Shown piece by piece: positions 24,891 through 64,000 of a DNA stretch of 64,000 bases. The translations under genes and the position numbers were made by a program. Numbering within the stretch: position 1 is the first letter of the stretch; every line of letters begins with the position of its first letter. Source of the stretch: Blasia pusilla. Lineage: Eukaryota. Below the pieces are notes generated by a model, which was not told the DNA's origin, made no database searches, and saw nothing but the letters and a program-made list of their open reading frames with translations. The DNA lies in NCBI GenBank assembly GCA_050084515.1, contig CM114271.1, positions 37,820,001 to 37,884,000 of the forward strand, given 5' to 3'.

Positions 24891-24929
24891 ATTGCAGAAT
24901 AATTCTCACTTTGTCTTGATGATTTGCAG

Positions 24930-28700: not shown

Positions 28701-28724
28701 GAAAATAAAGGCAATCAACCTTTC

Positions 28725-30472: not shown

Positions 30473-30479
30473 CTAAACA

Positions 30480-36107: not shown

Positions 36108-36250
36108 GAGCCTCGCGCACTCTCAGTTCGCAGGCCTTCATCGCTAACCAGTAAAGTCTCGCAATCAATCGATCTGCTCTTGCATCCAACTTTAGATCTC
36201 CGTCTAGATCATTTAGTCCATTCCATCAGGGTCGAGATTCAGCACCGGAA

Positions 36251-37023
36251 ATGGGTTCCTTCGAGTCTGCTGTGGAGTTGGCCGTGCCTGTGAGCGCCTT
36301 GTGGGCGGCTTTGAAGGAGCAAAACACGCTGTTCCCCAAGCTCTTACCAGAGGTCATTAGCAGCGTTGAGGAAATCGAGGGTGTGGAAGGACACGTCGGC
36401 TCCATCCGACTCATCAAGTTTGGTAAGATCACGAAAGAACATGTCAGGCTCAAGAAGTTTATGCACACAGTGTTGATGAGTAAATCACGGTCCGTTTTAT
36501 TGATCCCATTTAGCAGTCTGTATATAAAGAGGGGGTTTAAATTACTGTCTTGATCGATGGGGTTGGTGGATAGCCTGTTCAGTCAATTGCAAGACTTTTG
36601 GATAACGTTCTCGGATGAATGCGTGATCGATGTTGCAATTAATGGCGATGAACGCTTAGTATCAATAGGCATGGCCACCTGAAATTGAATGATCGGTTCT
36701 CACACCAACACCGTCCACACTTTCCAGTGGCTCCCGCGGGCGCGTTCGTCAAGGAGAAGCTCATCGGCCTGGACCTCGAAGGTGATTCTAAAATCACCAC
36801 TCAAGAGATCGAGGGAGGACATCTCAGCGAGGGCGTAGGCTTCACCAAGTGGGTTACCATCATGACCATCAGCGCCGTCGGCGATGACAAGTGCAAGGTG
36901 CACGTCACCACCGAGTACGAGGGCGGCTCAGAAAACGCCATTCCTGGCGTCGTCGAACAAGGGCAGGGAGCAGTCACACATTTGTTCAAAGCAATCGAAG
37001 ATTATATCAAGAACAAGGCGTAG
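36251..37023 (+). CDS. Bet v 1/PR-10-like protein, pair 3 plus gene; exons 36251-36422 and 36728-37023, 155 aa
   Basis: GTAAG donor at 36423, TTTCCAG acceptor ending 36727, open frame. Intron is 305 nt versus 196 nt in pairs 1 and 2. Confidence 0.9.
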
Positions 37024-42140: not shown

Positions 42141-45100
42141 ATGGATGACCAGCTTGCTCATTCAACTTGTTTTTTCGATCAGAGATTACAGATATTAGAC
42201 AATAGAGCTCCAGTATGTTTGCGGGCAAGGAATACTTCTACTCCTACCCGCCCAGTTAGAAGCAGAGACACGACTTTCTTGAAACGCAAGAAATCTCGCC
42301 TGCATATTTCTAAGCAGAGGGCTCATTATAGGCACACCTTGGAAAATCAGTTAGCCTGTAAATCTATTGCCTACTATTGGCCATTTGCTGACCAATTATT
42401 CTCCATATAGGAGTTAACGTATTTATCCATCATTTCATGGATGTTATGTTGTGGTTATTGTGGAATTGTAAAGTATTCCACTCCTAAGGATCCCATGTCC
42501 ACAATTTCCACATCTCAATATCCTCCATATGCCTTATGTAATGGTTTTCTAACTGTCTATATTATACCCATGATAGGTGAGTTTTATGCGTGTGATCCTT
42601 GTACCACTCTAGATCCAAGGACTTCACACAATGTCTACATGACACCCTCTTATATCAAGCAGATTCTAGCTCTTTATCCCCTTCATCTTCAACTACTATC
42701 AATGGTTGACTATTGTATTAGCATTATACAAAAGTATAACGGGTTCCACAAGGGATTTTTCAATGCAACATCACTTAAAGATTTGCCTCTCATAGCATGG
42801 AACTTGGACTTTACTAGTATCCATGATCTTCAAGCCACAATCACAAGTTTGACACAGATCTTGGCCATAAATGTACAGATAAACCACCCTTACAGAGACT
42901 ATAAGTGTTCACTTGAGTTGCCCAATGCATCTGCTGGCCTCGTCATTCTACCTTCTACTACAATAGACACTATTGTTAAATCATCTCAAAGTAAAGGCCA
43001 AGTAACACATAGCATGTCCCATGATCCATGTAAGCCAGATCTTAATTTGTTACAGGATGTTACTTATTCCATACCCGTTCAAAGAAGTAATGCCTCTCAT
43101 AAATCTGATAACGGCTCCATATTTTCAGAAATCAGGCCAATTATAGAGAACCTTTATTGATAGACTTATTAGGGTCTTCCAATGATAAGAGGCTAACCAT
43201 AGAAATAGGGATATTTCCCTTTCCCTTTCCTTTTCCGTATCTTTGGGGATTCTTTCCTAGTATTGGCTCTTTTTCAGATTATATGAAGTTAAGGTCAAGA
43301 CAACTATTTAGACCTTTTTCACTTTACGAGCCATATCCTATGGTTATGCACCACCTAAGACAATCCATATCCCCTTCTTCTACATCGTTATCTTGTTCTT
43401 TCACTCTTAATAGAGATCTAGAAAAATGGAGAAGAGACAAGCCACACCTACTTGAGGAAGATCCATACTTTAATCTATCAAAATATTCATTGAGCCCTCA
43501 ATTACCTGGTACTCCTGCTTGGCATCGCAAACACTTGAAAGATCTGAGAGCCATGGTAGCTAGATAAGGCATGCCCTACACCCTTACATTTGATGAAGTT
43601 TTGCCTACAAGATGGACAGAGATCGGACACATAGAGAAAATAGTAACAAATTTCAAATAGTTCATTTATATGGAGAGATACACATGCAGAGTGTGCACAA
43701 CACTTCCAAACCAGATTGCACACATTTCTCTCCGAGTACATACTCTCGAGTCCCCATATCCTTGGTCATGTTATAGATTACGTAATCAAATATGAGTTAC
43801 AAAATAGAGGTAGCCTGCATTGTCACATAGTATTCTGGATTTCTTCAAATGATATTGATAGAGTCACTTCTGAAACATGTGCTTACATTCCTAGCTCTAC
43901 ATGTTCAAATCCTCCATGACAAGAAACAAATACTAGTTCCATTAGTCCAAATTCAATACTTCTTGATTATGTGACCTCTAAAAAATTGCACCATTGTAAA
44001 GAAGGTGCTTATATAGTTAGGAAAAAAGACAAGAAACCTCATTGTAGGCCACGTTTTCCTGTTGACACAAATCTAGCCACAGTTCCATTCATTAACCCAC
44101 AAACCATGCGTTGGGACTCATTATCAACCATCTCACCTTCATCGCAATGTTATACCATACCATCCATTAGTTTTGCTGCTTTGGGAAGCACACATGAACA
44201 TACAAAGAGTCACAAATATAGATTGGTCCTTTTATCTTATCAAGTATGCATTAAAGTCAAAACCCACAGGCTCACTTGATATTGACACAGAAATTGGTAG
44301 GTGCCTTGGATTAGAAGCCTTGGATGAAGTTAGATTGAAGCTTATCTCATGAGTTGTTCTGAATCATTCAATTTCCGCAATAGAAGAAACTTTAGCATCC
44401 ATGCAAATACCTATAATATTCAGGTCCCAATCTCACAAATATATTGACTCAAACCCTCCCTCTCGAAGAACTTTGTTATACAAGAATGCTTCAATTCCTT
44501 GTATCCACCCTGTTGAGCTATACTCTAATAGACCATCCTCTTTAGAAGATTTGACTTTCACACAGTATTGGACAAGTTATGATATATATAAGAGACCTAC
44601 TAAGAAAAACATTACCACAGTTGTAGGAATTGATTCTCTTGGAAAAAGTGTTTATTCCCCATCCAGAGTTATCAAGTCTACAAAGTTTCACCCTTTACAC
44701 AAGTGGAATGAGTCCTTTTATAACCTACTTTTACAGCGTATTCCATTTAGGTCAGAGCAAGATCTTCTTCTTCGACTTCCACTCAGTGCAAACTTCTCCA
44801 TGAATGTTTACATCGTGGCATTTTTCAAGACATGGAGTCTATTACCTCATTAATACAAGCCCATCTTTGTTCAAAACTTGGAGAGATCTTGTCCATCTTT
44901 GCAAAAATAGTGTCAAAGTGTGCAAACATCTTCCAACCAAGTCTAGACAGTGATATACATTCATTCTTCGGAGGTGTTACCTCCATATCACAACCACGTT
45001 AGGAGAACAATACTACCCATATCCACACATGTAGGATACTAAACACATAACAACACAACTTATTCAAATATTTGCAAAACCTTTCCTCTACAATTTTCTT

Positions 45101-46300
45101 GCTCCAAGGATCTCCAAGTTGAGGAAAAAAAATCTTTGTAAATTTCATGTGTAAGTATTGGAGAAACAAAGGCTACTATCTCCTCCTAGCAACTACTACA
45201 AGTATTGCAGCAGTACGTCTCCATCTTGAAGCAACTATAGTACACTATGCATTTTGCATACGACTTTGTGGAGACATTCCTAACATGCATGCTACATCCG
45301 ATTCCTACATTAGGCTGTAGAGTACAGACATTGTTATTATAGATGAATGTTCTATGCTCACTCCTTGTTTGATGCAAATAATAGCCATGAGACTCAACCA
45401 AAGCAAGCCATGTTACACCAATACACCTTTTTCTAACAGATTAATTTACTTGGAAGTGACATGGCGCAGCTACCTCCTATGTGTACTCATACAGTTGAAC
45501 TTTTGTGTAGCACTTGTCACCCACTAACGTCTCCATTTCTAAGTAATTTTAAGAAGCTCGAATTAAAGACTCCAATAAGACACTCTGGCGATCTAGATTA
45601 CCTTAGATTTCTAACTGATATTAGATCCTCACTACCATCAAAATCTGAAATTTATGCTTGCTTAAAATATTGTTTTTCCAATGAATCAGAAGCTGTAGAC
45701 TTTATTTCACATGATACATTAATAGTTTGTTCATACCGCATTGATGCCCAAGTATTTAACACAGTATGTCTCAAGAGGTTCTTTGATACAATATCAATTA
45801 TTCTTGTTGGAATAGCTACTAATGCACCTTCAATTCTAGAGTTAGCATCTTGGTTAGAAGATGAAGATTTTCATTAATTGACATATATTGCAATTGGGTG
45901 CATTGTGATGCTAGCCTCTAATATGAACTTGGAAATCCAAGCTGCAAACGGCTCTCATGCCATCATCTCAGCAGTTCATTGTGTTGATCATGACATACAT
46001 TCCATAACAATTAGAATTACTTCCTCGGGTCACTTTGTCAGTGTCACAAGGTGAAGCTTTCCTTTACTAAGATATGGGTATGGTTGCAAGTATTTGAAGA
46101 GGACATTCCCATTAATTCTTGGATATGCCATGACAAGACATAAAAGCTAGGGGCTAATTGTAAATGGTCGTTTTTGTTCGTAATTAAGTCCGCCTTCATT
46201 GCTAGATTAGTTTATGTTATGCTTTCTAGAGTTTGCAATGAGCAACAGTTGCACATTCTTGGTCAACTATATCCGGATGATTTTTTGACAATTGGTCAAA
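42141..46300 (+). mobile_element. Helitron RepHel pseudogene, duplicate of 17040-21200
   Basis: Same HUH motif (YELQNRGSLHCHIVFW) and Pif1 motifs, and the same inactivating stops (AMVAR*, EDEDFH*, HKS*G). Confidence 0.9.
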
Positions 46301-48985
46301 GAACTAGTTCCCTTGCAACTTTTCTATGCCTCTACATTATGCAAATGTCTACTAGTGAGACTATTTCGAGGACCAGAGGTAAAAAGCCAATGATGACAAC
46401 ACATCAACTACATAACTCAACAACTATACCATCTCCAATCTATGATTATCATCTACATTCTCAACAGCTACAGCAACCTGCAGTAGCATCCTCTTAGCCT
46501 CAGGTCATTTCCTTGCAATAGTACACAATTTTCTCTATAGATATTCCCAAGTTCTCGATCTAACCATTGCAGAGGTTCCTAGAAGTTACATGGACTTTGC
46601 CAGTATGATACTAAATGACATTCAAAGCATTCCTCAGCCGTTTACTCCACGAACTGTTCAGCCAATTGAGAACCAAATGAGATTCTATGACAACCTTGGC
46701 CTTGTTTCATTTTTGGTACCTCTACAATTCTTTAAGTAAAAAAATTAATTGAAATAAATAAGGCCTTCAAAGAAAAGAAAAAGTACCAAGTTAAGCTAAA
46801 ATCCAACATGTTGTCCTTACACTATGATAGAGGGGGATTCGACCCCTAATTGAGTAAGAAGCTCAATCAGCCAATCTGTCATCCCCCTAGCGTACTCCCT
46901 CCCACTAATTTACTCCCAATTCAACAGTGTCAAGTACACTCGAAGCAAAATCTACAAAAATATTGAATCCAACATGTCTCAAACATTAAAAAACTCACCA
47001 AGATCAACTCATACTCTAAATGTATGTAATGAAAGCATATAAGTCGAATGAATAAAGTATATATTATATATATATATATTTTATATATATTATATATATA
47101 TATAATATATATATATTCTATCTTTAATCTTGATTTCATTATCAAGGTCACATTAGAAATCACCATTTCAATATCAATCGATTGCACATTTATTGCATCA
47201 TAAGTATACAAGGTTTTGTTATTAGATAAGCATGATCGGAAGACTTGTACCAATTATACATAACACGACAAATGCTTCCCTTTTGTCCACATACAGGCAT
47301 ATCCAACAAGTCCAAGGACCTACGACGTCTTGACCAATGTGAACCATTCTTTTAAATCATAAACAAAATATGCCCCAACAAAGATATGCTTCTTTTTGCA
47401 ACACTTGCCTCAACTGCAAGTTTTGTCTCTTTTCCCTTCTTTTTCTTTGACTTTGTTGATCTTGTGGAAGGACCAACGTTATATTTCTTAAAACTCAGAT
47501 GTTATTACATTAGTTTATACTTTCATTAAACCTCAAATATTTTGCCCCTTTTCCTCTAAAAGTTTAATATCATAATTTTATGAAACTATGAAATATCTTT
47601 TGCTTATGTCTCCTGTATCTTATCTTCCAATCACTTTTGTATGAGTTGCAACTTTGTGCAACACCGACTCCACTTAATCTCCCAATCTGGATATACATAT
47701 AATCATCCACTCGAGATGGCCATATTCTATTTCTAACTATTTATCAAAACTCAAACACATTGCTACATTTCTACTAAATTTACATGGTTTCAATATTCAT
47801 AACAACAATTCTATTTAAAGACATCAAATCTAATATATAACTTTCCAATTACAAGCTAACAAGAATTTATATTCCAAACAAATTCAATGGCTCTAAACAT
47901 GAAATCAAGATTTCACACAAACTCGGTCCTCCATCATTTGAGCAATTTTATTTTTACGTCCTTATTCCCATTCTTACCAAAATTCCCCATATATTTCATT
48001 TATTCCCTCCATGAGCCCCTTTAAAATGCCTTCCCTTTCCTATAGCGGGCGCATACTAGTTAGTATTGAAATTAAAAATATTTTTACATTATTTAAAACT
48101 CAATTTTGTAAAAAAGCACATTTTTTAGCATATACGTTGTGGACCGAATAATAGGGACCATAGTGCTTTTCTATCGCAAAAGACGTATCACTCCAAGAGT
48201 TGCAAACTCTACGATTGAAGTAGAGTTTGGAGCTCGAGACTCGTATATACTCTCGGAAGGACAGTTCTCCCAACGCAGTCATCCATCCGCAGTTTTGATC
48301 GCTGATCACCTTCGAGAAAAACTTGTCCTTACAATCCATGATGGTGGAGGGGCATGCTTCGTAAATAAAAACAAAGCACTAGACTAAAATTTTTTTGGGC
48401 ATCTGATGGCCAAATAAATCATCTCAACGATACACCCGATTGCACTCGGTTAAACGAGCTAGCTCCGGTTACCACAGACTCAATCTCACGGACTCTCATT
48501 CTTTATCTGTAACCGGACTCCATTCCATAATTGATGTTGATAAATTTAAATGATGACTTATCATGAAAATATGAACGGAAATGGTGTGAGGGACCATTTT
48601 GAATTTCAGGTGGCCATGGCTACTTGTACTAAGTCGATCACGGATACATCCCACATTTGAACGTTATGTCCAAATTTCCTAAAGGTTAAGTTTTGAAATT
48701 GACTATGTAGGTGAGCTATTGATCTGAATGAGTTTAACCGTCTGCGTCAAATTGGTGCTAAGCGTAGGGGTTCATACACTCATTATTTCGGTAATATTCA
48801 CACCAGTAGGAAAGCCAAAAGGAAAGCGCGCCCAATCTTATAATAGTTAGATTTAACTAGAAGTGTACATCTGGATTTAGTCCCATCGATCTCTTTGAAT
48901 TCATCAATACATTCAAGCGGAACATAAAGTACGAGCTGCGAAATGGGAGCGGTAAAACCGAGCGTACCGAGATTCAGCACCGGAC

Positions 48986-49784
48986 ATGGGTTCCTTCGAG
49001 TTTGTTGTGGAGTTGGCCGTGGCTCTGAGCGCCTTGTGGGCGGATTTGAAGGAGCAAAACACGGTGTTCCCCAAGCTCTTACCAGAGGTCATGAGCAACG
49101 TTGAGGAAATTGAGGTGTAGAAGGACATGTCGGCTCCATCCCAACTCATCAAGTTTGGTAAGATCACGAAAGAACATATCAGGCTCAAGAAAATTATGCA
49201 CATTACAGTGTTGATTAGTAAAGCACGATCTGTTTTATTGGTCCCATTTAGCAGTCTGTATATAAAGAGGGGGTTGAAATTACTATCTTCATCGATGGGG
49301 TTCATGGATAGCCTATTTAGTCAATTGCAAGACTTTTGGATAACATTCAACGAGAGGGAGATCTCGGATGAATGCGTGATCAATGTTGCAATTAATGGCG
49401 ATGAATGCTTAGTATCAATAGACATGACCACCTAAAATTGAATGATCCATTCTCACACCAATGCAATCCACACTTTGCAATGGCTCCCGCGGGCGCGTTC
49501 GTCAAGGAGAAGCTCATCGGCGTGGACCTCGATCTCTTGAGTGGTGATTCTAAAATCACCACTCAAGAGATCGAGGGAGGACATCTTAGTGAGGGCATAG
49601 GCTTCACCAAGTGGATTACCATCATGACCATCAGGGCCGTCGACGATGACAAGTGCAAGGTGCACGTCACCATCGAGTATCAGGAAGGCTCAGAAATGCC
49701 ATTCCTGGCATCGTCGAAAAAGCGCATAGAGCAGTCACACATTTGTTCAAGGCAATCGAAGAAAATATCCAGAACAAGGCGTAG
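48986..49784 (+). pseudogene. PR-10-like pseudogene (fourth pair, plus gene)
   Basis: ATG at 48986. Frameshifting indels in exon 1 (gaggtgtagaag), acceptor CAG>CAA at ~49480, frameshift in exon 2. Promoter and partner exon 1 are removed by a fusion at ~48967. Confidence 0.85.
49527..49576. repeat. Perfect 23-bp inverted repeat with 4-nt loop, unique to the pseudogene
   Basis: cctcgatctcttgagtggtgatt-ctaa-aatcaccactcaagagatcgagg. Confidence 0.95.
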
Positions 49785-52454
49785 ATGAATTCAGCGTTGT
49801 GCGGGTACTTAACCTATGGATTCAAAATTTACTCCCGTTGCATGTTTGTTGCGGATCGAGCTAGAGCCCTTCAATCATTTTTCGAAAGATCGTCATCAAT
49901 TAGCATTGTAGCTAATTGTAAGTCAAAATTAGAATAAAAATCTTGAGCTCGACGCTTCCGTGTGTGTGCTAGTGCTAACTGGCCCTGGTTCAACGAGGCT
50001 TAGTCGAGTTAGATCTAAAATCCTGGGGGTTCCATTCGGTGATGAGTTCCTGGTAGAGAGTTTTTATTCCCAATTAGCTCCGGTAAGAGCTTTGATTTCT
50101 CTCAAGCCTAATGGCATCATGGCACCATAGGATGTTTGATTTTGGAAAGTGTACGAGTTCTGATCCCTTCTATGAATGAAAATTGAAAGAATTTACGGCA
50201 CGCTCATTCTATTGTGTACACGCAGTGGATTCCTATTAGCAAGAGTCTCTTGGAACGCATATATGTAAGAAACTTGCTGAATTCTCGCAACTTGGAAAAT
50301 GTCATTTATTCATTAATGAATGAGCAGATCCAATTTAAAGATCACTAGAGGAGGCGTCTCCCGCGGCCTCAAGGAGTTCAACTTGTCTTGTGATTCACGA
50401 GCGTAAACGGGCTTGGGCAGGTCGAGCAACTTGAAATTGTATACAAATTATACTACGATGGCAAGCGAGAGAAAATGATTACGTGGCCATTCGAACGTAC
50501 AGAAAAAGTTGTCACTCATGGGAAACGAGAAGGAGTTCGTGAGTGTAGGCAAAACTTTTTGTGGAAGGTTGAGACTATGGCCACATAAACGAGCGATATG
50601 GTTACGCATCCCAAAGAAGGAATGAATAGGTGTTCGAAGGCGTGGCGTTCGGTCATGAAGGAGCTGCTTCATTTGAGCTAGAAGGCAAGCATGACCACTT
50701 ATCAATCATTGAATAGTTTTCCATTGAAAGCATCTCCCGCTTGCACCAAAGAAGTGAAAGTAATGATGGCGATGGAGAATTTAGCAAATGATCTAGATGC
50801 AGAAGGTAGTTAGAATACGCGAAGTTCTTAAATTGTCTTGCGAGGTTGTATCACTTTTTATAGTCACAACAGTACATGAGATTAATTGTAAAGAAATGTG
50901 GATTGCTAAGTGGAACCATCCGAGTGTAGGACGAGAAGCTCGCTAGATTAGGGCTGAGAGTGTTTTTCTGTCTAAAAGACGGTGTAGTGATTGAAGTAAC
51001 ATTTAGAGCTGTAGAGATTGATCTAATATGCGAAGGATGATGCATCATGCATCTAACCATGAAAGGAGGAACTGAAATGATTCTCAAATAATTATGCGGG
51101 GAAAAGCTGATAAAGTATTGTAAAGAAGCTACACTGGAGCAGTAATCGGCTCAATCTCAGAGGATGTGTAAGCTTTTTGGGTTAATTTGGTCATGAAGAA
51201 CATTTACTCTGTGGATCTTCTTGAAAGTTCTTGCAGAGTGGGCGTAAGTATGGAGACGTGGAAGTCTCCAAGTGTCCACGTGATTGGTTAGATTAGGATA
51301 TGAACCGCCAGGACTTGCAAGTCATGGCTATGGCAAGTCTACCAAGGTCTTGTTCGCGGCTTCAGATGAACTCAAGTCCGGAAAGTAGACTATTGGTTAT
51401 CCCAAACTACAAGACATATTCCTTTCATTTTCTGTCACTCCAGATCAAGAAGCCTACAAATCTACATTTATGGGCAGCATTTGGTCAACTAGACGGCCAT
51501 TTGAAAGCATGATGCCATCCACTCAAGAGGTACAAGAGAAACTTGAGAGATGAAGTTTAAGGTGGTGAACCCTTGAGCCCTTACAGGGAAATTATAAGTG
51601 TTAGTCAAGAAGAAATATGAAGGCTACACTCCCGTAGAGTAAGAATAAGACTTTTGAAGTCAAAAAGGAAAGAAAATGGAAGATGAAAGTCAATTATGGG
51701 GAGCTGCCGTCCAAAAAGTAACAGTGGTATTCAAATCTTGTGGAGGGCCAAAGAATCTTGATAAATATTTGGTCAAGAGAAAATCTCAAGGAAAGAGGAG
51801 ATAATGACTTGAGTAAAATTGACCAAGTAGTAAGAGTGAACAAGGAAGAAGGAAAAAGTCTCTACCTGTCGTGCGCCTACTCTCCTTGAACGTTAATATT
51901 TGTTGTTGCAGAAGCGTGCGTTCAGTAGGTCACACTCTCTACGTAGATCTGCATCCAAACACGCAGTTTGGTTAGTCGGGTCTTGGATCAATCAGCGGGC
52001 TAAATTTTCAAGTTCTCATCAAGCTCAACTTTCCTAGTTTTGCGGTTTATAACACAAGCAAGTCTTGGAAGAATTGGGATAGACTTTGTGGTCGATTCAG
52101 GAACCTCAAACAAAGTTTTGCACGTGGCTATTCCAACTTTCCGATGGACATCCAATGAGTCCCTAACCAAGACTCACAAAAAATGAATCACGGCTTGGAA
52201 TCCAAGTGTGGCGTACAAAGTCCACTCCCTTGGATCAGGTTTGGGTTTCGAGTTCCAACGCCAAACTCCCGTTCCATCCCGTGCCCTTGAGATGCCGTTT
52301 GGTGCTCAAAGTGGGGATTTGTGTTCCAAGACTTCTTGGAGAAACTCCTCCCTTACTAGTACTTACGGGCCTCTCCAATTGGCCCTCAACTCGATTGCTC
52401 TCACAGTCATTTTCGGCCAATATCTCGAGTTTGTACTTATGCGTTTGCTGAGAT

Positions 52455-53090
52455 CCCGACGGACTCCGACGGGTTGGACGATGAAAAAGTTTCAGGAAAA
52501 ATTGCAACCCGTCGGATTGCTATGTGTTGCATGGTGAACTATTTTCAGAACAAAGCAACAACTTGTCGAATTCCAACGGGTTTCATGATGAAATTTTTCC
52601 AAAAAAATATTACAACCCGTCGGATTCCGACGGGTTGCATGATGAACTTTTTTGAGAACAAAATAGCAACTTGTCGCATTTAGACGGGTAACATGATGAA
52701 CATTTTCCAGAAAAAATTGCAACCCGTCGGAATCCGACGGGTTGCATGTATAACTTTCTACAGAAAAATATTGCGACCCGTCGGCTTCCGACGGGTTGCA
52801 AGATGAACTTTTTTCTGAAAAATATTCCAACCCATCAGATTCGACGGGTTGCATGATGAACTTTTTCCATAAAAATATTGCAACCCTTTGACTTTCGATA
52901 CATTGCATGACATAATTTTTTCATAAAAAAATCGCAAGCCGTCAAAATCCGACGGGTTGGAAGCCCGCAGATTCGGACGGTTTGCAAGCCGTTGGATTCA
53001 AACTTCCCGCAATGTGATGGAACTTGTCAGTTCCGACGAGTTTCTTTACCTACGTAATTTGAGCCCCATACAATTTCGACGGCTTGCAAC
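52455..53090. repeat. Palindrome minisatellite, 53-54-bp period, in the transposase intron
   Basis: Palindrome starts at ~52503, 52557, 52611, 52665, 52718 (perfect, 52718-52746), 52772, 52826, 52879 and 52933. Spacers are related (tgatgaactttttccagaaaaatat). Confidence 0.9.
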
Positions 53091-53134
53091 CTTACATTTC
53101 AACCACATATTTGGAAAAAGTGGAGAAAACTCAC

Positions 53135-55111
53135 CTGCCGTATAAAGTTTCCCCATTGCCTCATACGGACGGTCCACCAACTGAGCCACGAACACAACTC
53201 TTTATATTTTCCGTCAATCGCATGCTTTCTCCATCACACATGAAGTTTGTCTTGGCACTCCATGGCTTGTTTCAAGGTTTTGCTATCCCTGCAACGTTGA
53301 AGTAGAGCTATATGCTCTCTTCTCTTATTCTCCTTGATGTAGGATTTTGTGTAGCGAGTCACAGACTGTTGCCAATGGAAAGCATCTAATATTTCCCTTT
53401 CCGGTTGAACTCCTTCCCCCCAGAACACTTCTCGGATTGCAATCCATCCCGGTTGGGCATTTTCTGCCATGAAGCCATATATTTCAGGAGGAGATCTTTT
53501 GTTTTCGTTCACCACCTCCAGCAAGAGTAACCAACACATCTTCAAGCTGCCAACATCTTCCGCTTTCACCTCACAAACAAAAATGGTTTTGAGACCCTTC
53601 TCCACATGGTCATAAACATGTGCATCCATGGTCAACCATCCATTTAATACCTTGTAGCAAATATCAAAGCTAACCCACCTCCCAAATAGATCTTCTCCCT
53701 CCTTGATTCTGTCAATAAGATTGAGGCCGCTAGACGGGCCTGTAGTAGACAATTTGAAGACATAAGCTCTAGATCCCTCGCCTCCTTGGCCCATGAATTG
53801 CCATCTCTGGATGAATGGAAATCGTGAGTTGGCCTTGATCCTAGAAATGGCATCCATCTCCGCGGTCTTTCCATCAAGTATTTGTATTTGACGCAATAAG
53901 TTCCTGAAGCTTTCTGGATCACCCAAGAATGCCAGGTTTTCCCATAGTTGCTTCTCCTCAGCTTCTGTGATATCCCCTTCGCCATGGATACCCAAAAATT
54001 GTTCACAAATTTGTGATAAAGTTGTCAATTTGATCACTCTCGCTTTGATCCTGGAGAATTTTTGTATACCTCGGCCACTTTCTTTGCTACATCCTTCTTG
54101 ATGTATCTCTGAATTGCACCCGTGACAAGATGAGTGTGACACCCAACATGAATTGCCACTCTTGTGTACTTGGACCTTGAACTATAGTTGTGCACTTTGA
54201 AATAAGTAAGCCGGACACGCTCTAACACAGAAAGGGGAGGCTTGACAATGCGGACAACGATGGCCACCGATAGGATGGTCGTACCCACAGCGTAGGGAGT
54301 TTTTGTATTTTTGGGAGGAAATTGGGAAGTATTCACGACTCTGTTTCTCTCGAGGAAGGGGCACCCTGGGCTTCTGCACTCTAAGGCTCCAATAAATTGG
54401 CAACAAGACACAATCCAAGGACCACTAGGGATTGAAGCGCTCATCCGCTACAGTCTGCACCATCGGCGACATTCCGATTTTCGGTCCATTCCCTTCAAGC
54501 GGCCTCCATCTTTCTTTTGAGCAGGATCCACAAGTGGAGGCAGCTCAAAAATGTTGTTCCATCATACGTTGCTGGCAGCTCATCCACGATTATGTGCTTG
54601 ATCAGTTTCAAGGGAAGAGAAGAAAGCAACAAATTCCTCGAAACTCCAAGCAGGAAAAAGTAAGCGGACGTGTTTCCAACAGATCCTGTGAGATCGATGA
54701 CATCCTGGATATCCATAGTCTTAATTGTGGTGTTTCGAGCTTGTGAAAATGGAGTCAATGCAAGATCAGCCGAAGCACCCATGCCAAACATGGAGCATGG
54801 AGCACTCGAAGGTTTTGGACCGTCTTCATGAGTCGTAGTGGTGATCAGGGGTAGGCATTGGAGTAGGGTAAGAGGGTCCACACTCTGTAGCTTCCAATTT
54901 CCGGTTGGACTGTTTCCCTAATGACATCATCCGTTCCATCAACCTTGACATCCTTGGATACAAATATGGTTCCAATCAAGAGAAGAAATAGGAGTGAAAG
55001 GAAATGTTCTTCAACAATTACATGAATGTCATCAGGCTGGGCTCGAATACTCTCCGATTGAGGAAGGCCCGCTAGATGACTGCTACATGTAAGCTTCACA
55101 TAATTGTCCAT
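53135..55111 (-). mobile_element. Mutator/MULE-type DDE transposase with N-terminal GCM/WRKY-fold-like Zn domain, degraded
   Basis: Joined frames read VDELPATYDG/IFELPP...GMDRKSECRRW...IGALECRSPGCPF...N...VAIHVGCHTH (GCM-like). MULE core WVSFDICYKVLNGWLTMDAHVYD...TIFVCEVKAE...GFMAENAQPGWIAIREVF...DAFHWQQS. Reading through the TGA at 53234-53236 gives WRKHAIDGKYKELCSWLSWWTVRMRQWGNFIRQ, then a GTGAGT donor at 53134. Third catalytic residue not found. Confidence 0.75.
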
Positions 55112-55315
55112 TTCGGTCAGACCAACAATAATTGCCCAGATAGAGAAATAAGAATGGGAATGTTGAATTTATAGTGAATAGTGTCCGTTTAAATTTTGAC
55201 AGAATATCTATGACATGTGTTAGGTTGAACCATCGTCGGGTGAGTGGACCTACCAGAAAGGAATATTCGGACATCTTGGTTGATGACTAGTGGGAAAGGC
55301 CTTGTCAGGCTTACT

Positions 55316-56163
55316 TCGACCCGTAGGAGACGGACGGGTTGGAAGGTAGACACTAGGGGAACTTCAACCCGTTGGAGTCCGACGGATTGGAAACGAGGAG
55401 GGATGTCGATGGAACAAACCCTGAACACTAAACGCATCTCGACGTCTAGAATTTTGTCATAATCTATGGGAAAGATGTGGCAGGGGTCCTTCAACCCGTC
55501 GGAGTCCGATGGATTATAAAATGGACAGACTCTGAACACCGGTCCGTCCGGTCCTGCTACCCGCTTACCTAACGGATTCCCCCACCTTCCACAAGTTAGG
55601 CAGCCTGGGTTCCGTGCAACTCGTTGGAGTCCAACGGGTTACACGACCCAGGTTAAATGGACCCCATGCCACCCGCCAAAGTCTGACGGGTTGCACGGGA
55701 CCCTTTCTAGATGGACCCTATGCAACCCGTTATGGTCCAACGGGTTGCAGGAGGTGAGCAAGATGAATTCTCCCCGTGCAACCCGTCGGAGTCCGACGGG
55801 TTGCACGAGAGCCAATTTGGATGGACCCTATGCAACCCGTTGTGGTCCAACGGGTTGCAGGAGGTAGGCAGGATGAATTCTCCCTGTGCAACCCGTCGGA
55901 GTCCGACGGGTTGCACAGGAGCCAGGGTGGATGGACCCTATGCAACCCGTCATGGTCCGACGGGTTGCTAGAACTAGGCAAGATGAATGCTCCCCATGCA
56001 ACCTGTCAGAGTCCGATGGGTTGCACTAGAGCTAGGCTGGATGGACCCTATGCAACCCATCGTGGTCCGACGGGTTGCACGGTGACCTCCTATTCAACCT
56101 GTTGGAGTCCGAAGGGTTGCACAGTGACCTCCTATTCAACCTGTCGGAGTCCGATAGGTTGCA
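55316..56163. repeat. Palindrome array between the two divergent transposon genes, including a 110-bp A/B higher-order repeat
   Basis: A-type copies at 55721, 55831, 55941 and 56051 (preceded by gatggacccta). B-type at 55777, 55887 and 55997 (preceded by gatgaattctccc). 55777-55805 and 55887-55915 are perfect 14+1+14 palindromes. Confidence 0.9.
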
Positions 56164-56490
56164 TAGTTCCCATGTGCCATGCACCGTATACGCAAGATGT
56201 CATCGTCGGACCAACGGTTCCCAAAACCTAATGGTCAGCTCAATGACTAAAAATCTATATAAGGCTTTGATGATGATCATTTCTCTTTCCTTTCCATTGC
56301 ATTTTCAGTAAAAGCGTTTTGAGCAAACACGTGGGTTACTCCGGAAACCGCTTCGCTCGAAGGTACCACCGCTACGATTGACGAAGATTCGAGGGATGAC
56401 GCTTTGAGGGATGACGCTTCGAAGATTGACAGTGAAATTGATTGCTTTACTATAAGCGAAGTGTAGAGCTTTACTTCTTTCACGACCACA

Positions 56491-59400
56491 ATGACGAGGA
56501 AGAAAACTCTAGCATCGAAGGTTGGGAGTGTAACTCCAAAGTCCATCAGAACGCCTGTACCGCCTTCTCTTGGCCCTTGCTCGGTGGTGGACATAAGGCA
56601 ACAAGAGATAGAGGACCGGGAGAGGGAAGCTGAAATGCGCAGGCAAGAGCTAGAGGCTAAGCTTGCGCTGGAGGAACTTGCAAAGCGGAATGCCGAGGTG
56701 GAGGCATCAAAGGCAATGAAAAAAAGGATTGCGGACAAGAAGAGAGAGAAGAAACGTCTCGATGCATCTATTAGGAGGGAAGAATTGGCATAAGCACGGA
56801 GGGAGAAGGCTATCACCGTGGAGGAAGATAGCCTTGTCGGACCTACGGACAACGTTGAGATGGAGGATGCATCCCCGTTGAGGTCGGGCAAAACCCTAAA
56901 CTTGAAAACGTCTGAAGAGCTTGAAGATGCTCAAGAGAAGGAAGAGGAGTCAATGAAGACACCAAGTGTGGAGATGGTGGACATCTCTAAGGAAGCGGGA
57001 GAAGAGTCCTCGTCTTCATTGAGCCGGGTGGAAGAATTTGAGTTCTTCCGCATGGATGAGTTTCCTATGGAGTTGCCTCCTCTTGTCTCAGAGCAGTTGG
57101 CCGGCCTTGACACTTATCCAATTTTTGAGAGGGTAAGGAGTCTTCGACATAACTTACTAAGCTTTGATGATCACTTCGAAAGAAAATTACAACCTATTAA
57201 CCATCACGAAAATTTTTCAGGTTGTAAAGTAGATGGCGGTGGTGGATGGCCACAAGTCCCCCCGAATTCTTCTTTGTCGACTTTGGACCATGGAGTACGT
57301 CCGGGAAATTCAGTCGGACGAGGACATTGCAAAGTTGAAGTATTCAGTTGCCATAACATCTTACTTCGATAGCTTCCTGCCATTCTTCGTGCAGCCTTAT
57401 GATGAACATGGAACACAGTCTCTCGTGACAGAAGAAGACCTGGAGAACATGGACACGTTCTAGAGAATAAGAGACACGAAGTTCATAAGAGTTGTCAGAG
57501 GAACTGAATTCAGGTGGATAATGAACCTAAATTTCTTCATTTGGGATGGAAACCACAGGTTCAGGGCATGGTTCCAATTTTCCGAGGAGCGCCCAAATTT
57601 ATTAGAGGCGCATTTTTGTGTGAGGGCAGTCGTCCTCCATCCCTTTCTGCATCATATGGCCACGGTGTAGATGGTGATGCACTCAATGAATACGTAAGTG
57701 TTTCTTTTTCTCTCTTAGAATTGTTTGCTTGCTGCAACCCGTCGGAGTCCAATGAGTTGCCCAATTCAGCTTACTAGAGTTTGCAATTAATTGTTGGTTA
57801 GAGAGGAAACCAATCGCAACTTGCATGGGCAATTTGGGACACAATACAGCAACCCGTCGGAGTTCGACGGGTTGCCCCATTCAGCTAACTACATTTTATT
57901 TGGAATCATAGGACAACATAATGGAAATCCATCGTATCTTCCATGGACAATTTAGGAAACCATAAAGCAAGTCGTTAAACTCCAATAGGTTTCCTTACGG
58001 TATTTCGGTCCATGTTGCTCAACCGTGTGGCAATCCGTCGGAGACCGACAGGTTGACACAAGACAACTTCGTAGTCGCTTTCTTGGATGATATGTGTGTT
58101 TTGAAACATGTTAGAAGCCGACGGGTTGCAGGGTGGTATTTAAAATTAGAAATTGAAGCCTTATATGCAAATCGTCGGTCTCCGATGGGTTGCATAAGGT
58201 GAAACATTTCTAAGAAGGAGACTCATTTTCAAAAAAAATGCAACCGGTCGGATGCTGACTGGTTACAGACACATTTGTGTTAGCTAAATTAGTGGAATAT
58301 CATTCTATATTTTCCGCATCCTAGGCCTCCTTGCAACCCATCGGATACTGACTGGTTGCAGACACATTTGTGATAGCTAAATTAATGGAATATCATTCTA
58401 TATTTTCGGCATCCTAGGCCTCCTTGCAACCCGTCGGACTCCAACAGGTTGCGAGATCGACTCTGAAATTGACTCCGGTTGACAGCAATGTGGAGCCCAT
58501 CAAACTCTGACAGGTTACGAGATCAAAAGGTTCAACGAATTAACAGCAACCCGTCGGAGTCTGACAAGTTTCAAGAAGGTCATGGATGCCAAAAATAAAC
58601 CATGATATTCCTCCATTCATGTCCAACGGCTATCGATATTGCAACCCGTCGGAGTCTGAAGGGTTGCAAGATTGCTGCCATTTGCTAATAGTTGTGCAAC
58701 TTTTCGAGATCCTGTGGAGGCACAAACTACATTGAACCTTTCTTAGGGCCTTTCTCTTGGATACCGTCGCAGCCCGTTAGAGTCCGACGGGTTGCAATCA
58801 GTCGGCACACGATCTTGTTTGTCATCTTGTGTGCAACGTGACGGAAACTGACGGATTACATTGCAGAATAATTCTCAGTTTGTCTTGACGATTTGCAGGA
58901 TTGTCTCGGAGGGGAACTTGATGCATCATTGGATCCAAAATTGCGATAGGGTCAAGAAGGTGCTTACAACACACCCGACGGAATACAAAGGATTCTTGGG
59001 GCAAGACTTAGTGGATGAGATGCTCGCGAAGGGTACGCAGATCAAGAAGAAGACTTGGGCGGATAGATACATATCCCAAGAGGGAACCGTCATGATTCTG
59101 TGCTGGTCAAAAATTTAGGCTTCCAAGAAAAATGCCACATAGGAGTTGGAGCGGAGGGAAATGTTTTGGCATCGAAGCGAGCAAAGTTCATTCAGACTGC
59201 TATGTCAGCAGTCACCAAGTACACTGCGAGCAAGATGCAGCGGTACATTGGCATCCTCAACCCAGATCTTTGCTAGGACTTCTACAAGGAGTTGAAGGCG
59301 ATCATTAATCGCCAGAGGAAGAGGGACAAAGATCTACAAGGTTGAATTGGGGAAAATGTCTCATTAGACCGCATCCATAGGTTAGAACTTTCAGGAATAT

Positions 59401-59560
59401 CCGAATTTAGGTGGATCCGACTGATGAAAATCAGTCTTGAGGGGACTCAAGCACAAAAACATGTAGCACATCATCCTCCGGGGGTTTCAGACCCTCCTAT
59501 CTCTCATTGGCTGAGAGAATAGTCTTTCTCGGACTGCGGTATGTGGAATTCTCTGTTCAA
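56491..59560 (+). pseudogene. Spliced gene: coiled-coil/acidic N-terminus plus ParB/Srx-like domain; exons ~56491-57132, 57221-57693 and 58899-~59560
   Basis: Phase-consistent introns 57133-57220 (GTAAGG..TTTTTCAG) and 57694-58898 (GTAAGT..TTTGCAG). Reads RILLCRLWTMEYVREIQSDEDIAKLK...FFVQ...FFIWDGNHRFRAW (DGNHR at 57545-57559)...MHSMNT-IVSEGNLMHHWIQ. Several TAG/TAA stops. Truncated by Copia. Confidence 0.7.
57733..58860. repeat. Palindrome cluster (~14 copies) filling the large intron of the ParB-like gene
   Basis: e.g. gcaacccgtcggagttcgacgggttgc (57849-57875). A 93-bp palindrome+spacer unit is duplicated at 58239 and 58332. Confidence 0.85.
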
Positions 59561-60400
59561 TTCGGGCTTCAATTTGAACCTTCTCCGAGTTTACAATTAC
59601 AAGAATTCACAGATGCTGATTGGGCAAGAAGCGTGTCTGATGGACACTCCATATGTGGTTATTCATTTACTTTGGGAAGCCCAATTATAAGCTGGGCTTC
59701 AAAGAAGCAACCTATAGTTGCTTTATCTTCAAGAGAGGCTGAATACAAATGAGCAACCAATGCAGCATGTGAGGCGGTGTGGCTTTATCAATTACTTATT
59801 GAGATTGGTATTAGTAACTTAAGACCTAGTGTAATATATGGAGAAAATATTAGTAGCATCAAACTTGCTAATAACCCTATGTTTCATGCTTGTACAAAGC
59901 ATGTTGAGATGCACTATCATTTTATGAGAGAGAAAATGCTTGCAAGAGAAATTGATCTTGTGTATGTAGGTATAGATCAGCAAATTGCTTACGTCTTTAC
60001 AAAGGCATTGTCTAGAGATAAGTTTGAGATGTTTAGAAACAATTTAGGCGTTACAGATCTTGATATGAGCTTGAGAGGGAGTATTGAAGATTGAGTTACA
60101 CACAAGATCATGAGATATTTGAACTGCTATATTTGGTACTCATGCAAAGTAGGGAAGCTTAATCTTGGTTAGTCAGTGAAGTGCGCTTATCTTAACTAAG
60201 GTTAGTCAATCACAATTAGTCTAACCATAGACTATGGTTAAGATTAGGGTTAGGGTTGCTTGTACATACCCTATATAATTGAGAAGGGGATCACCCTCCA
60301 CTCATTCTCTCATTGCAAAATTTAATTCTCCACGGTGGTGAGTGAGTGTGAGAGCCGTTTCCCAGCAGTTATGCTTCTTGAGCAATTTTCTACATATTCA
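59560..60400 (+). mobile_element. Ty1/Copia RNase H, PPT and 3' LTR (duplicate of 25590-26411)
   Basis: FTDADWARSVSDGHSICGYSFTLGSPIISWASKKQPIVALSSREAEYK, TKHVEMHYHF, PPT gagagggagtat followed by TG at 60085. Confidence 0.85.
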
Positions 60401-62640
60401 CGATGTGTATTGTTTCTAGTTGATACACCGTGTATTTTTTTGCACATCTTGTCTCGATCATCACTTTATTCTTAAGTACAAACTTTCTCAAGCGATACTA
60501 TGGAGACTCTATAGTTTCTTGGTTGACTTCCTTGGATCTCCCCAAGGACTCAATGGACCCGAAGAAATATCCTTTGTTTGATCCTTGTGAGATTTCTGTA
60601 GAGAGTCAATTAAGTCATCCCCAAAGTCAAGACCCTTTAAAAAGGCTTAATTTAGAATCCCAAGCCGGTCTTTTCATGATGTCCAACTTTAAGGTTTCTT
60701 TTGTATATTAAAGGTTGATTGTCCCTTGTTTGTGGTAGCACTTCGTCCAAGTTGAAGTTCTATTTGATATGCTCTTCTTGAGAAAGAGGAGACCATTTCT
60801 TGCTCTCTAGGGGTGTTGGAGTTGCACTCTTTATGCCATAGTGTTCTTGGATGGACACACATTGGCACTGATAGCCTTCCCTCTTCTATGTATGGATTTC
60901 ATTTATGTGCTTATCATCGCAGTGTTTCTTATTACGTCATGGATTTGAGTGACCTTTTCTTGTTCAATACAACTATAGAGTCAGGAGAAAAGCTAGAGAG
61001 CAAGAGCTAGAGCTAGAGATCCAATAGCAAAGTTGGAGCGGCCCAAGAAGACTTTCCCAAGGGGGGGGGCAGGTCAGAGGGCCCTAGAAGTATATATAAG
61101 GGGATCTGAGCTCTACTTTGAGTAGCCACAAGGCTAATCGAGGGCACGGAATGGACCAAGGGCAAGAGAGTAAATTTCAAAGGCCCCCCTTGGATTCCAA
61201 CTATGACTTAGTTACTGGTTCTCATGGTTAGGGACTCATGCAAAATCCATTAGACAATTGGAACGGTTAGGCTTGTGAGCCTCGTTTTAGGTGCCTTGAG
61301 TATCTAGAAAGTTTGTCCCAAGTCTAGAAAGATCCGCCCGTATTGGGAAGTGAAGAGTTAGGACCTATTAAGCTTGATGCATGGCTGAGTTGAAAAATTG
61401 GAAGGCTGGTGGACTCAAACCAAGTCTAATTTGAGAGTGTGTTTAGATGCAAATCAACAAAGTGAGCATGACCTTCTAAATATATGCTTCCGCAACATCT
61501 AAAATTGACGTTCAAAAGGAGTAGGTGCACGATAGAGGGGATGATAGCAGACCCAAGTACAGATTAAGGATTGAACAATCTAAAATGTATTGCAAACAAA
61601 GCGTAATCAAAATGCTCAAAGAATGCAGTTTTTGACCCTAGTTTAGAATGACCTTGCTGACTTGGGCCCCATAGTCGTGTATGCTTCCCGCGGACTAAAA
61701 AGAAAATTTGGCTGAATCTGGGGTTATGAGTAATCATAGTTGGTTAAAATTGGTTTTGGTAAAACAATGGCAAGATTGGGAGTTCCAAAATGGTAAAATG
61801 AATTTGAAATCCAATTTTACTATTCCACGCTATGAAATACCAGTTCCCATTCTTGCTTCAGTCCACAACGAATATGCTCAAAAATTCAAAAATGTGTTAT
61901 TTTACAAAATTGAGCTTTTAATAATGTAAAAATATTTTTAATTTCAATACTAACTAGTATGCGTCCGTTATAGGAAAAGAAAGGCATTATAAAGGGGCTC
62001 ATGGAGGGAATAAATGAAATATATGGGGGAGTTTGGTAAGAATGGGAAGGGGGCTGGTATTTTGGCAGGAGAGAGTAAGAGAGGAGAGGAAGAGAGAAAG
62101 AGAGGAGAGTCTCTCTTAAAAAAAAAAGGGAGAGTCCGCCTCCTCTCTTCTAAAATTTCATTTGTTTCTTTATAAGTTTTTCTCTTTGAAATGCTAAAAA
62201 ACTTTAGAAGAGAGTAACAAGTGGACTAGATTGGGTCATAAACTAACCTCGTTTTTCCAGGCTTCAATCCTAAACTAGACACACCAAGACCAAGTAAGCC
62301 GTGGTCTGTATATACTACTTACATCACTCTATATGCTAGCCAAGACTTTCACTACTAATAGATGGGATTTATTTTCTCCTAGGACATTCTTGGAGATTGA
62401 CAAACACGATAGCAAATTTGGTGAGTTTATTAGAAAAGGGATGGGTTTGAATATTTCCAATTATGACTCAGACTTCTCTGAGGCCACGAATCAGTCGTCT
62501 ATGTTGGCTGAGCAATGGGTATATGGAGTGTCTATGATGGTGATGGGTGTTTGGAAAGTTTAGGGTTTAGCGTTTAAACACATCAGTCTGAGGTAAAGAA
62601 AGCGATCCTTAAGGCCTACATGGAAGGACTACGAGGAAAA
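60401..62640. repeat. Nested unclassified LTR-like repeats (duplicate of 26412-28700)
   Basis: Colinear with 26412-28700. Confidence 0.45.
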
Positions 62641-62659
62641 TAAAGGCAATCAACCTTTC

Positions 62660-63325
62660 ATCTTGTCGGAATCCGACAGGTTGGTAGACGTCAAGATTCC
62701 ATAAAATCTAATGACGAAACAAGTGGAGAGAATGAAATGAAGGTAATGCATCATCCTTCCATGCAACCTGTCGGAATCCGACAGGTTTAGATGCTGATTG
62801 CTCCCATTTTACTCTAAGTCCTTCCTTGTAGATCTGTGTCCTCTCTTCATGCAACTTGTCGGACTCTGATAGGTTGCATGATAGATGAAGTTTGAATCTA
62901 AGAAGAACAACAGGAATGAAGCCTCCCAACCTGAGGCATGCCAACCTGTGAGAATGCAATAGGTTTCAGAAAATAACGCCTGAGTGAGGAATGGTTTGAA
63001 GGAAATGGGGGAACAAGGCGAGGGTCCACAAGCCAGCCAGAATGCCTGAAAGGATTGTGGTGGCACAAGAAAAGAAAAATTAGTCAAGTAGACAACCTGT
63101 CGAGATCCAACCGGGTGGAGAACGTTAAATTGGGAAAATGCAGCAGCCAATCAATTTGACATGCAACCTGTCTGAATCCGACAGGTTTCCTGAATGGATC
63201 ATAGAGAAAGAGGTTTAAAAAAATATGAGCATCCCGTAAGCAATAAATCCCACAACTTGTCGGAATCCAATAGGTTGCAAGCATGGTCTTTGGTTTGCAA
63301 CCCTGTTTAACTCGACGGGTTGCTC
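62660..63325. repeat. Palindrome cluster (duplicate of 28725-29375)
   Basis: e.g. tgcaacctgtcggaatccgacaggttt (62762). Confidence 0.75.
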
Positions 63326-63486
63326 AATGAAGACCGTTCAACATAGAGGAATCGCAACCGAGACACACAAGTACCACTACTTAGAAGACACATCAAGAAC
63401 ATTAATATCCTTAAAAAAAATGGAAGTCCTTTATTATATCCTAGGGAAACTCGGAAATTTACATTTGTTCATAGAATCCAACAACT

Positions 63487-64000
63487 CTAGTCTATGATTT
63501 CCTTAGCCTTGTCATCTCAAATTTACTCCTAACTCTCCTTGGTTCCTGTACAAGAGGAATGTCTTGGGATACTAGTGGCTCATCTGGCCGATTGTAGATG
63601 GGGATTGAGAATGTAGGAGAAGTTGATAGCCTTGCCTCCCCCCCCTAGGTACACCATATCGGTCCCATGTGTGATTTTAAGAGTCCCAACGCCTTCCCCG
63701 TAAAAACATCTTGTATGCTCCGCAAGGTGACATCTATCCACTATCAATATGTACTTCATCACTTGAAACCACCAAATCCCTATTCCAAAACACTTGAATC
63801 AATTGAACCCGATAAATGCAGTGAACTCACTCATCATCTTCTGAGAGCTCCTCCAAAATGATTGCCGGCCTTGCCCTGCCGATTTTTGGAATGACAGGAA
63901 GGGAAGATGGCGTCACTACCAATGGGTCTACTGTTGGTTGGAGTAGTTGCCTTTTGAGGTGAGTTGTAGACTCCCACAAGCCTTTCGTAATCCACCTTTG
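63487..64000 (-). pseudogene. C-terminal tail of the MTase-like exon, copy 2 (MTase core predicted just beyond the window edge)
   Basis: Colinear with 29537-30048; the window ends ~35 nt before the GRNILSIE-equivalent position. Confidence 0.6.

Follow-up and report, generated by a model that had tools for sequence, protein, structure and literature searches.

At the right-hand end of a 64,000-nucleotide stretch of Blasia pusilla contig CM114271.1 (hereafter the window), a minus-strand transposase pseudogene and a spliced plus-strand gene for a large accessory protein lie head-to-head, separated by a dense array of a palindrome of about 27 bp, GCAACCCGTCGGANTCCGACGGGTTGC. The window as a whole is eukaryotic DNA rich in repeats, with a large duplication inside it, and further palindromes, together with a methylase-like remnant, are found in the other copy of the duplicated segment. 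The region from 52452 to 64000, continued in that other copy (copy 1) to about 30950, is quite probably what remains of a composite cut-and-paste DNA transposon, now dead, that combined a transposase, a ParB-like/methylase accessory gene and the palindromes. The coordinates of all features are collected in Table 1.

Palindromes and transposase

The 25-nt core of the palindrome, allowing up to three mismatches, gives 36 strand-hits in the window against 0.00 expected from 100 shuffles. Searches with the 11-nt half-sites at up to two mismatches return 101 hits (block shuffles: mean 7.8, maximum 13), which merge into 64 sites, all within the two duplicated stretches: 43 in 52440-64000, 21 in 24002-31100 and none in the rest of the window. 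This agrees with an earlier interpretation of the same DNA made without database searches (the sequence-only reading), which had counted 60-70 copies confined to the duplicates. The cluster at the outer left end, c1, is a probable array of subterminal repeats of the element. In the intergenic cluster c2, units centred on GGAGTCC alternate with units centred on TGGTCC; Tandem Repeats Finder (TRF) places them at 55615-56082 (period 54/110) and 56047-56167 (period 42), and the array matches itself at an offset of 110 bp. At the two CpGs of the consensus, C>T or G>A transitions make up 54 of the 112 palindrome mismatches, as long-term methylation of cytosines in the element would be expected to leave behind. 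The palindrome centre reads GGANTCC, and GANTC is kept in 17 of the 31 copies that retain two arms.

The two stretches are not independent transposition copies, as the word duplicates in the sequence-only reading might imply, because both are parts of one segmental duplication. In a comparison of the window with itself, 24002-30048 matches 57876-64000 at 94-95% identity, and the enclosing repeat measures about 25 kb (e.g. 13255-22909 versus 38399-48027, 95.7% identity). Copy 1 lacks 49176-57875, and hence both the transposase and the ParB-like exon. The window consists throughout of this segmental duplication of about 25 kb, by which the dead element was carried along, and 1-2731, 9599-12295 and 34707-37543 are further internal repeats (96-98% identity).

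Transposases of Mutator-like elements (MULEs) combine a DDE core bearing a C-x-x-H signature with an N-terminal WRKY/GCM1-type finger and a C-terminal SWIM finger. Read by eye, the open reading frame (ORF) piece at 53234-54142, with its tail, contains a catalytic core with FD...GFMA(D/E)N...AFHW motifs, the order along the 302-aa ORF being ..FD..K..GW.TM.., then ..E.., then GFMA(D/E)N...AI..VF and finally ..FHW. The piece at 54034-54444 includes an upstream Cys/His-rich segment (C....C ... HVGCHTH, also read by eye) that could be a WRKY/GCM1-type zinc finger. The spacing FD...GFMAD...C.(F/Y)HW and a SWIM-like CxC...KH are typical of MULEs; by eye, a SWIM-like CxC...KH ORF follows the catalytic core in a related metagenome locus, L056. 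In the ESM Atlas, the ten best family-bearing hits of the 302-aa ORF are all MULE clusters; the best score, 0.89, falls below the 0.9 line and makes this a lead only. On this lead and these motifs the transposase is probably MULE-like.

Table 1. Features of the putative element and of its partial duplicate (copy 1) in the window
Feature	Position	Strand	Remarks
Left (outer) palindrome array, c1	52452-52990	none	about 8 tandem 54-bp units, one palindrome each; TRF 52455-52886, period 54, 8.1 copies
Transposase pseudogene	52991-55111	-	three frames, internal stops, no C-terminal SWIM region
Transposase ORF pieces	54845-55111, 54495-54881, 54034-54444, 53234-54142 with tail to about 53000	-	from ORF list
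Intergenic palindrome array between the 5' ends of the two divergent genes, c2	55190-56180	none	periods 54/110 bp and 42 bp
5' exon region of accessory gene	56491-57372	+	acidic, coiled, low-complexity N-terminus; stop at 56791-56793; frame change near 57230
ParB/Srx-like domain exon (predicted)	57233-57694	+	WDGNHR motif; one in-frame stop; ends at GTAAGT donor
Intron containing c3	57695-58897	+	GTAAGT donor, TTTGCAG acceptor
Palindrome cluster within intron, c3	57735-58794		about 12 sites; 93-bp tandem at 58239-58438 (TRF period 93)
Further exon remnants	58898-59555	+	58918-59127 = P0065 aa 328-398; 59241-59555 = aa 435-533; stops; homology ends at 59555
Copia-like pol C-terminal fragment	59507-60094	+	DADWA...ISWASKKQ...EAEY; truncates accessory gene; duplicate at 25472-26106
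Palindrome cluster c4	62764-63188	none	duplicate at 28902-29237
End of inverted methylase remnant, copy 2	63837-64000	-	custom HMM match 63837-63998, E 0.088 (HMM included window copy-1 row); remainder outside window
Copy 1 of intron part and exon remnants	24002-25586	+	c3 copy at 24157-24825; exon remnants 24955-25586; from duplication map and tblastn
Methylase remnant, copy 1	29969-30355	-	SAM-binding motif-I region (GGRDKSPALMQTLIELCSRPCDLVLDLVGLSGAS...GRNILSIEGR); in-frame stop; PF01555 E 0.045
Palindrome cluster beyond methylase remnant, c5	30642-30941		copy 1 only; copy-2 counterpart outside window
HMM, hidden Markov model; SAM, S-adenosylmethionine.

The accessory gene and its relatives

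Searched exhaustively with HMMER, its single stop read as X, the exon at 57233-57667 has 62 homologous proteins at E <= 0.001, 11 of them at 1e-10 or better and the best at 8.3e-19 with 37% identity. The 30 matches that were looked up comprise 11 hypothetical proteins of Riccia sorocarpa, one protein of the fern Adiantum nelumboides and 18 from metagenome or read-archive assemblies, with no algal protein among them. The family follows the pattern IPLCRL..VR, GY, F.V, an insertion with W..W..FE and then F.VWDGNHR..AW; across 49 aligned sequences N107 is invariant, and G106, H108 and R109 are kept in at least 90%. WDGNHR fits the G-x-x-R / DG-x-HR strand-helix pattern of ParB/Srx proteins. The AlphaFold (AF2) model of 57233-57667, built with 48 homologues, has a predicted local distance difference test score (pLDDT) of 88.6 and a predicted template modelling score (pTM) of 0.81. 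Every entry shown in the Foldseek list of PDB structures is of ParB/Srx type (Noc, ParB, KorB, Srx, an archaeal serine kinase, SbnI and PadC), the ParB entries coming from Myxococcus, Caulobacter and Bacillus with 7BNR at rank 2, and probabilities reach 1.00 at E 0.016-0.05. On this modelling we assign the WDGNHR domain to the ParB/Srx fold with moderate confidence. The ParB/Srx call of the sequence-only reading is accordingly upheld by predicted structure and by none of the sequence profiles. No helix-turn-helix was identified in the accessory protein, and a 68-aa ORF carrying WDGNHR had no usable match in the ESM Atlas.

Among the homologues, P0024, a 1600-aa Laminin_G/BACON/Por-tail protein, matches the exon at 1.3e-7 through four short stretches (query residues 52-114); it was set aside as probably a repeat-driven chance match and excluded from the family alignment, A1. 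A Pfam match of the coiled N-terminus to ATP-synt_B is spurious. Antisense to the acidic N-terminal exon, a 217-aa Ser-rich ORF (56277-56930, minus strand) resembles a compositional mirror image and not a gene.

Downstream of the WDGNHR exon, the segment 57695-58897 is an intron, as its GTAAGT donor and TTTGCAG acceptor make a canonical GT..AG pair, and the exons on either side of it are contiguous in the Riccia proteins. In tblastn on the window, Riccia P0065 (1207 aa; cluster of P0006) is colinear with the plus strand over residues 165-533, residues 165-322 corresponding to 57233-57694, and the exon remnants beyond the intron reach a sum E of 3e-8 (4e-11 for their copy-1 counterpart at 24955-25586). 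The spliced plus-strand gene proposed by the sequence-only reading is thus borne out as far as 59555. At about residue 533 homology to the Riccia protein stops, where a pol tail that we take from its motif to be copia-like begins (Pfam gives no match to it). Following this tail, 60394-60961 matches 6738-7388 in inverted orientation at 77% identity, possibly as long terminal repeat material.

P0065 joins the WDGNHR domain (about aa 165-322) to a C-terminal match to the amino-methyltransferase family PF01555 (N6_N4_Mtase; aa 1112-1162, E 5.2e-5), and the Riccia fragments P0063 and P0066 match PF01555 at 9.4e-6 and 2.5e-5. The same C-terminal segment is picked up by the NCBIfam model NF010253, 'DNA methyltransferase', at E 0.0011-0.16, the weakest value being that of the window piece. 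P0065 residues 1106-1176 align to 30229-29996 on the minus strand (tblastn E 1.8e-5), where the remnant keeps K-S-P..L...LIE.....D.VLD...G.SG and GR..L.IE and aligns to DpnA (5hek) at E 0.28. Since one Riccia protein holds both domains, the ParB-like and methylase parts of the window belong to one accessory protein and, going by the relatives, are its two ends and not separate cargo. The methylase-like terminal exon of the sequence-only reading survives as a match to part of PF01555, at sub-threshold scores, on the minus strand and inverted relative to the ParB-like exons.

Beta-class amino-methyltransferases have their catalytic (D/N/S)PP(Y/F/W) some 170 aa upstream of motif I. In the window remnant, a mere 35 aa or so separate TNPPG from motif I downstream of it, so that about 140 residues were seemingly lost by deletion within the domain. 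The residues at this position leave room for an enzyme that is atypical or has no activity. For the methylase domain of Riccia, an AF2 model from an alignment of six rows is unusable (pLDDT 35.9). Pfam searches of all ORFs and read-through frames of 52455-64000 and 29300-30900 returned only ATP-synt_B and the weak PF01555 match.

The system in the window is inactive. Both genes contain stops and frame changes, the accessory gene is interrupted by the copia-like fragment and has its methylase tail inverted and internally shortened, and the palindromes have decayed from CpG to TpG or CpA. The sequence-only reading had likewise called the copies dead.

Elsewhere in the window, a Cys-rich ORF of 239-249 aa occurs at 17340-18059 and 42411-43160 (plus strand), inside a duplicated AT-rich block of 9.7 kb; the two copies are among the five window ORFs longer than 180 aa and may belong to another mobile element. 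An Rfam search of the window gave no match.

Linkage in related loci and rival explanations

A scan of metagenome assemblies with a ParB-like sub-alignment found 218 relatives; the 80 loci retained form 43 groups at >=95% nucleotide identity, and 20 of these groups, in which the sequence extends 3 kb or more upstream, are informative for pairing. The window transposase ORF matches five of the 80 loci, representing three groups (L041, L043/44 and L053/56), at E 2e-7 to 4e-13, and queries derived from L041 added short matches in L030, L032 and L035. Six of the 20 informative groups have a transposase homologue, which in each case lies on the other strand, upstream of the ParB-like gene, just as it does in the window. 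The head-to-head arrangement described by the sequence-only reading therefore recurs in divergent relatives, and this recurrence supports one composite element. Downstream of the ParB-like match, motif-I-like segments lie at 2-5 kb on the same strand in four groups (E 8e-4, 0.01, 0.51 and 0.62); in L010, PF01555 is the sole Pfam family listed (E 0.84), and a match of the custom methylase HMM there is discounted because it depends on the window row within the model. In L056, ORFs at 15117-15809 and 19113-19553 (both plus strand) resemble by eye an organellar ribosomal protein S3 and a hAT-type dimerisation domain, and suggest that the metagenome contigs are plant nuclear DNA.

Several observations weigh against a composite MULE-like element with ParB-like and methylase functions. 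A transposase homologue is missing from 14 of the 20 informative groups, and a search for perfect hairpins with 9-bp arms, covering 20 of the 80 related loci, found no comparable palindrome family. MULEs have long terminal inverted repeats and a target-site duplication of 9-11 bp; neither feature is definable from one copy, and BLAST comparisons of cluster against cluster for terminal inverted repeats gave nothing beyond the palindromes, a single left end (about 52452) being present. The transposase ORFs match no Pfam or NCBIfam family, the MULE profiles PF10551, PF00872 and PF03108 yield no family at E <= 0.1 in the window frames or in L056 and L041, and word-indexed database searches found no homologues, whether the query was the transposase ORF, its extension or an alignment of four sequences; the MULE/GCM assignment of the sequence-only reading accordingly keeps its ESM-feature lead and its motifs, with no profile to confirm it. 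On the side of the accessory protein, Foldseek gave no match at E <= 0.001 and TM-scores of only 0.40-0.46, and no sequence profile calls the domain ParB: not Pfam ParBc PF02195 (window frames and 0 of 20 homologues), not NCBIfam, and not the A1 profile against PDB sequences, where phmmer of the exon and hmmsearch of A1 returned chance matches only and Riccia P0066 matched nothing. Every PF01555 score is below the Pfam cut-off of 26.7 bits (14.1 bits in the window, 23.7-26.2 bits in Riccia), and the matches reach only the motif-I end of the profile, covering 50-55 C-terminal positions (about 165-218 of 221). The expected (D/N/S)PP(Y/F/W) reads DLPTG, DMPSG or DLPSG in the Riccia proteins and NPPG in the window, whose methylase piece is oriented opposite to the ParB-like exons. 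Finally, a methylase HMM built from Riccia alone finds nothing in the loci or in the window ORFs, and P0065 beyond aa 320 has no tblastn match in the loci at E < 0.1.

As regards hairpins in the related loci, GAGTCAAAC was considered as an analogous palindrome family and rejected, its copies being isolated. L017 has identical 27-bp hairpin copies at positions 6814 and 11604 (GGGAGTCAAACTGCCAGTTTGACTCCC within a longer shared stretch), 4.8 kb apart; the pair brackets the ParB-like gene of that locus and could be the repeat ends of another element.

No MULE profile matches the window ORFs or the related loci. The element could be composite and yet have a transposase from a different DDE superfamily, one of those in which such cargo is known (EnSpm/Plavaka, KDZ/Zisupton or Sola), an alternative that we hold to be unlikely but the strongest of those considered. 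Against it stand the ten best family-bearing hits of the 302-aa ORF, all of them MULE clusters, with the reservation on their score given above, and the by-eye motif spacing together with the SWIM-like ORF of L056, which would be MULE-typical patterns. Cargo of the ParB/methylase kind has been documented in Sola1, Plavaka, Zisupton and Fanzor elements, and Plavaka elements of the red alga Bostrychia were, according to a preprint, at first misclassified as MULEs owing to common accessory genes (10.1101/2025.02.11.637652).

The palindrome clusters themselves lend something to a different division of the locus. They flank every coding block, the methylase remnant is inverted and set apart by other repeats, the ends of the element are undefinable in the window, and most informative groups have a ParB-like gene with no detectable transposase. 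One might accordingly see two or more nested or abutting elements: a transposase-only unit bounded by c1 and c2, a non-autonomous or Pack-type ParB-like/methylase gene, and palindromes spread by insertions resembling miniature inverted-repeat transposable elements. This is improbable given the constant relative position and orientation of the two genes in six divergent locus groups and the location of c3 within a canonical intron of the accessory gene; an opposite-strand arrangement is, moreover, published for Ectocarpus Sola1-1_Ec32 (PMC12477816). It is more improbable still that the ParB-like/methylase gene is a host or domesticated bryophyte gene that merely lies beside a transposon remnant. 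Riccia sorocarpa does have many such proteins annotated as ordinary hypothetical genes, some of them uninterrupted at 864-1207 aa, but most members of this multi-copy family are fragments (the 30 matches looked up include at least 11 Riccia clusters, many of 160-460 aa), the 218 relatives come from a handful of metagenome assemblies, and the gene is linked to a transposase and in the window has decayed amid repeats specific to the element. A single composite DNA transposon with a probably MULE-like transposase remains the reading that we favour.

Possible function and relation to known systems

An intact element of this kind would encode two genes diverging from a common intergenic region full of tandem palindromes: a DDE-type, probably Mutator-like, transposase, and one large accessory protein with a predicted ParB/sulfiredoxin-fold N-terminal part (WDGNHR) and, as intact relatives suggest, a putative beta-class amino-methyltransferase (PF01555-like) domain at its C-terminus. 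Copies of GCAACCCGTCGGANTCCGACGGGTTGC, in arrays phased at 54 bp, occupy the outer end, the divergent promoter region and the first mapped intron of the accessory gene, and may be dimer-binding sites of an element-encoded protein. The accessory protein is a tentative candidate for this binder, at somewhat less than an even chance, and the transposase follows closely as the next; that both or neither bind takes up the remainder. The weight placed on the accessory protein derives from the inverted-repeat arrays of red algae, which accompany ParB-like genes across transposase superfamilies. Once loaded at the palindromes, the accessory protein might modify or shield the DNA of the element and so regulate transposition or counter host silencing by 5-methylcytosine (5mC).

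Dam methylation is known to time IS10 transposition to replication. GANTC is the CcrM/HinfI-type site, whose likeness to the palindrome centre is suggestive and nothing further. A fuller version of the mechanism, which we consider a long shot, would be a working parS/ParB-like self-recognition system in a land-plant transposon, in which a nucleotide-gated ParB/Srx clamp sits on the 54-bp-phased palindromes, the fused methylase writes N6-methyladenine or N4-methylcytosine (6mA/4mC) at the GANTC centre, and the mark shields the element from 5mC silencing or times transposition to replication.

Proteins other than transposases that act on the DNA of their own element have precedents. TnpA of En/Spm binds repeated motifs in its own subterminal or promoter DNA and affects its epigenetic state. 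VANC-type accessory proteins of VANDAL elements play the same role on their own element DNA (as cited in 10.1101/2025.02.11.637652). These proteins are unrelated to the one considered here, with no methylase and no ParB fold, and any resemblance would be functional only.

Closer parallels are found in algae. The giant transposon Sola1-1_Ec32 of the brown alga Ectocarpus encodes, opposite its transposase, a protein of 1104 aa with ParB-like and N4C/N6A-type methylase parts, which its authors propose to bind and modify its own transposon (Genome Biol 2025, PMC12477816). The window element resembles it, by description and not by sequence comparison, in having a single large protein (1207 aa in the Riccia relative) with both parts, opposite the transposase; it differs in its MULE-like rather than Sola1 transposase, in its bryophyte-like host and in being dead and rearranged. 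In Bostrychia moritziana, PAG2 combines a PF01555 methylase with SET and PAG3 a ParB-like domain with a 2-oxoglutarate (2OG) oxygenase, tandem inverted-repeat arrays lie beside PAG3, and most copies are degenerate; carriers include giant Plavaka (EnSpm/CACTA) elements, and PAG homologues occur in Mutator elements of Chondrus and in Zisupton and Fanzor elements (10.1101/2025.02.11.637652). The ParB-like domain described in that preprint has a weak HHpred match (e 0.29) to 7BNR, the structure also found here. The window thus shares with the Bostrychia genes, as the preprint presents them, PF01555 and weakly detectable ParB-like cargo, the likeness to 7BNR, inverted-repeat arrays and degenerate copies; unlike them, it has, on the evidence of the Riccia relatives, one protein instead of two genes, with neither SET nor oxygenase detected.

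Prokaryotes and phages possess loci that associate a ParB-type domain with an amino-methyltransferase and serve phage packaging (ParB-terminase) or restriction-modification (BioEssays 2016, PMC4738411). Such loci are the presumed ultimate source of the eukaryotic versions, and the searches made here identified no prokaryotic homologue of the accessory protein. The same review lists ParB-HTH-fused Dam-type methylases in chlorophytes and chytrids, and not the bryophyte family (PMC4738411).

The window shows the published algal architecture of ParB-like and PF01555 parts on a DNA transposon, opposite the transposase and adjacent to inverted-repeat arrays. Because this architecture is already described for brown and red algal transposons, the novelty that the sequence-only reading claimed for its combination with cis-palindromes does not stand; that reading was largely right on anatomy and overstated on novelty, and its self-marking or anti-silencing function is pure conjecture. 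New here are the hosts, namely a bryophyte-like genome, Riccia and a fern; the pairing of a MULE-like transposase with ParB-like and methylase parts in a single protein; and this palindrome. The element is possibly the first of its kind noted in land plants: literature searches found no land-plant report, though one may be mentioned in the supplements to the algal papers or in the review by Iyer et al. (2011) cited there.

In 2025, attention was drawn to ParB-like/methylase accessory proteins as what may be a new class of transposon proteins, which bind the element that encodes them and modify it epigenetically, with brown, red and green algae as the hosts so far (PMC12477816; 10.1101/2025.02.11.637652). 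The bryophyte-like genome studied here, the uninterrupted relatives in Riccia sorocarpa and the fern match suggest that this class reaches land plants, in which long-read methylation calling and transformation could put it to the test. If the self-recognition reading is true, the intact 1207-aa Riccia genes would make it testable in a liverwort.

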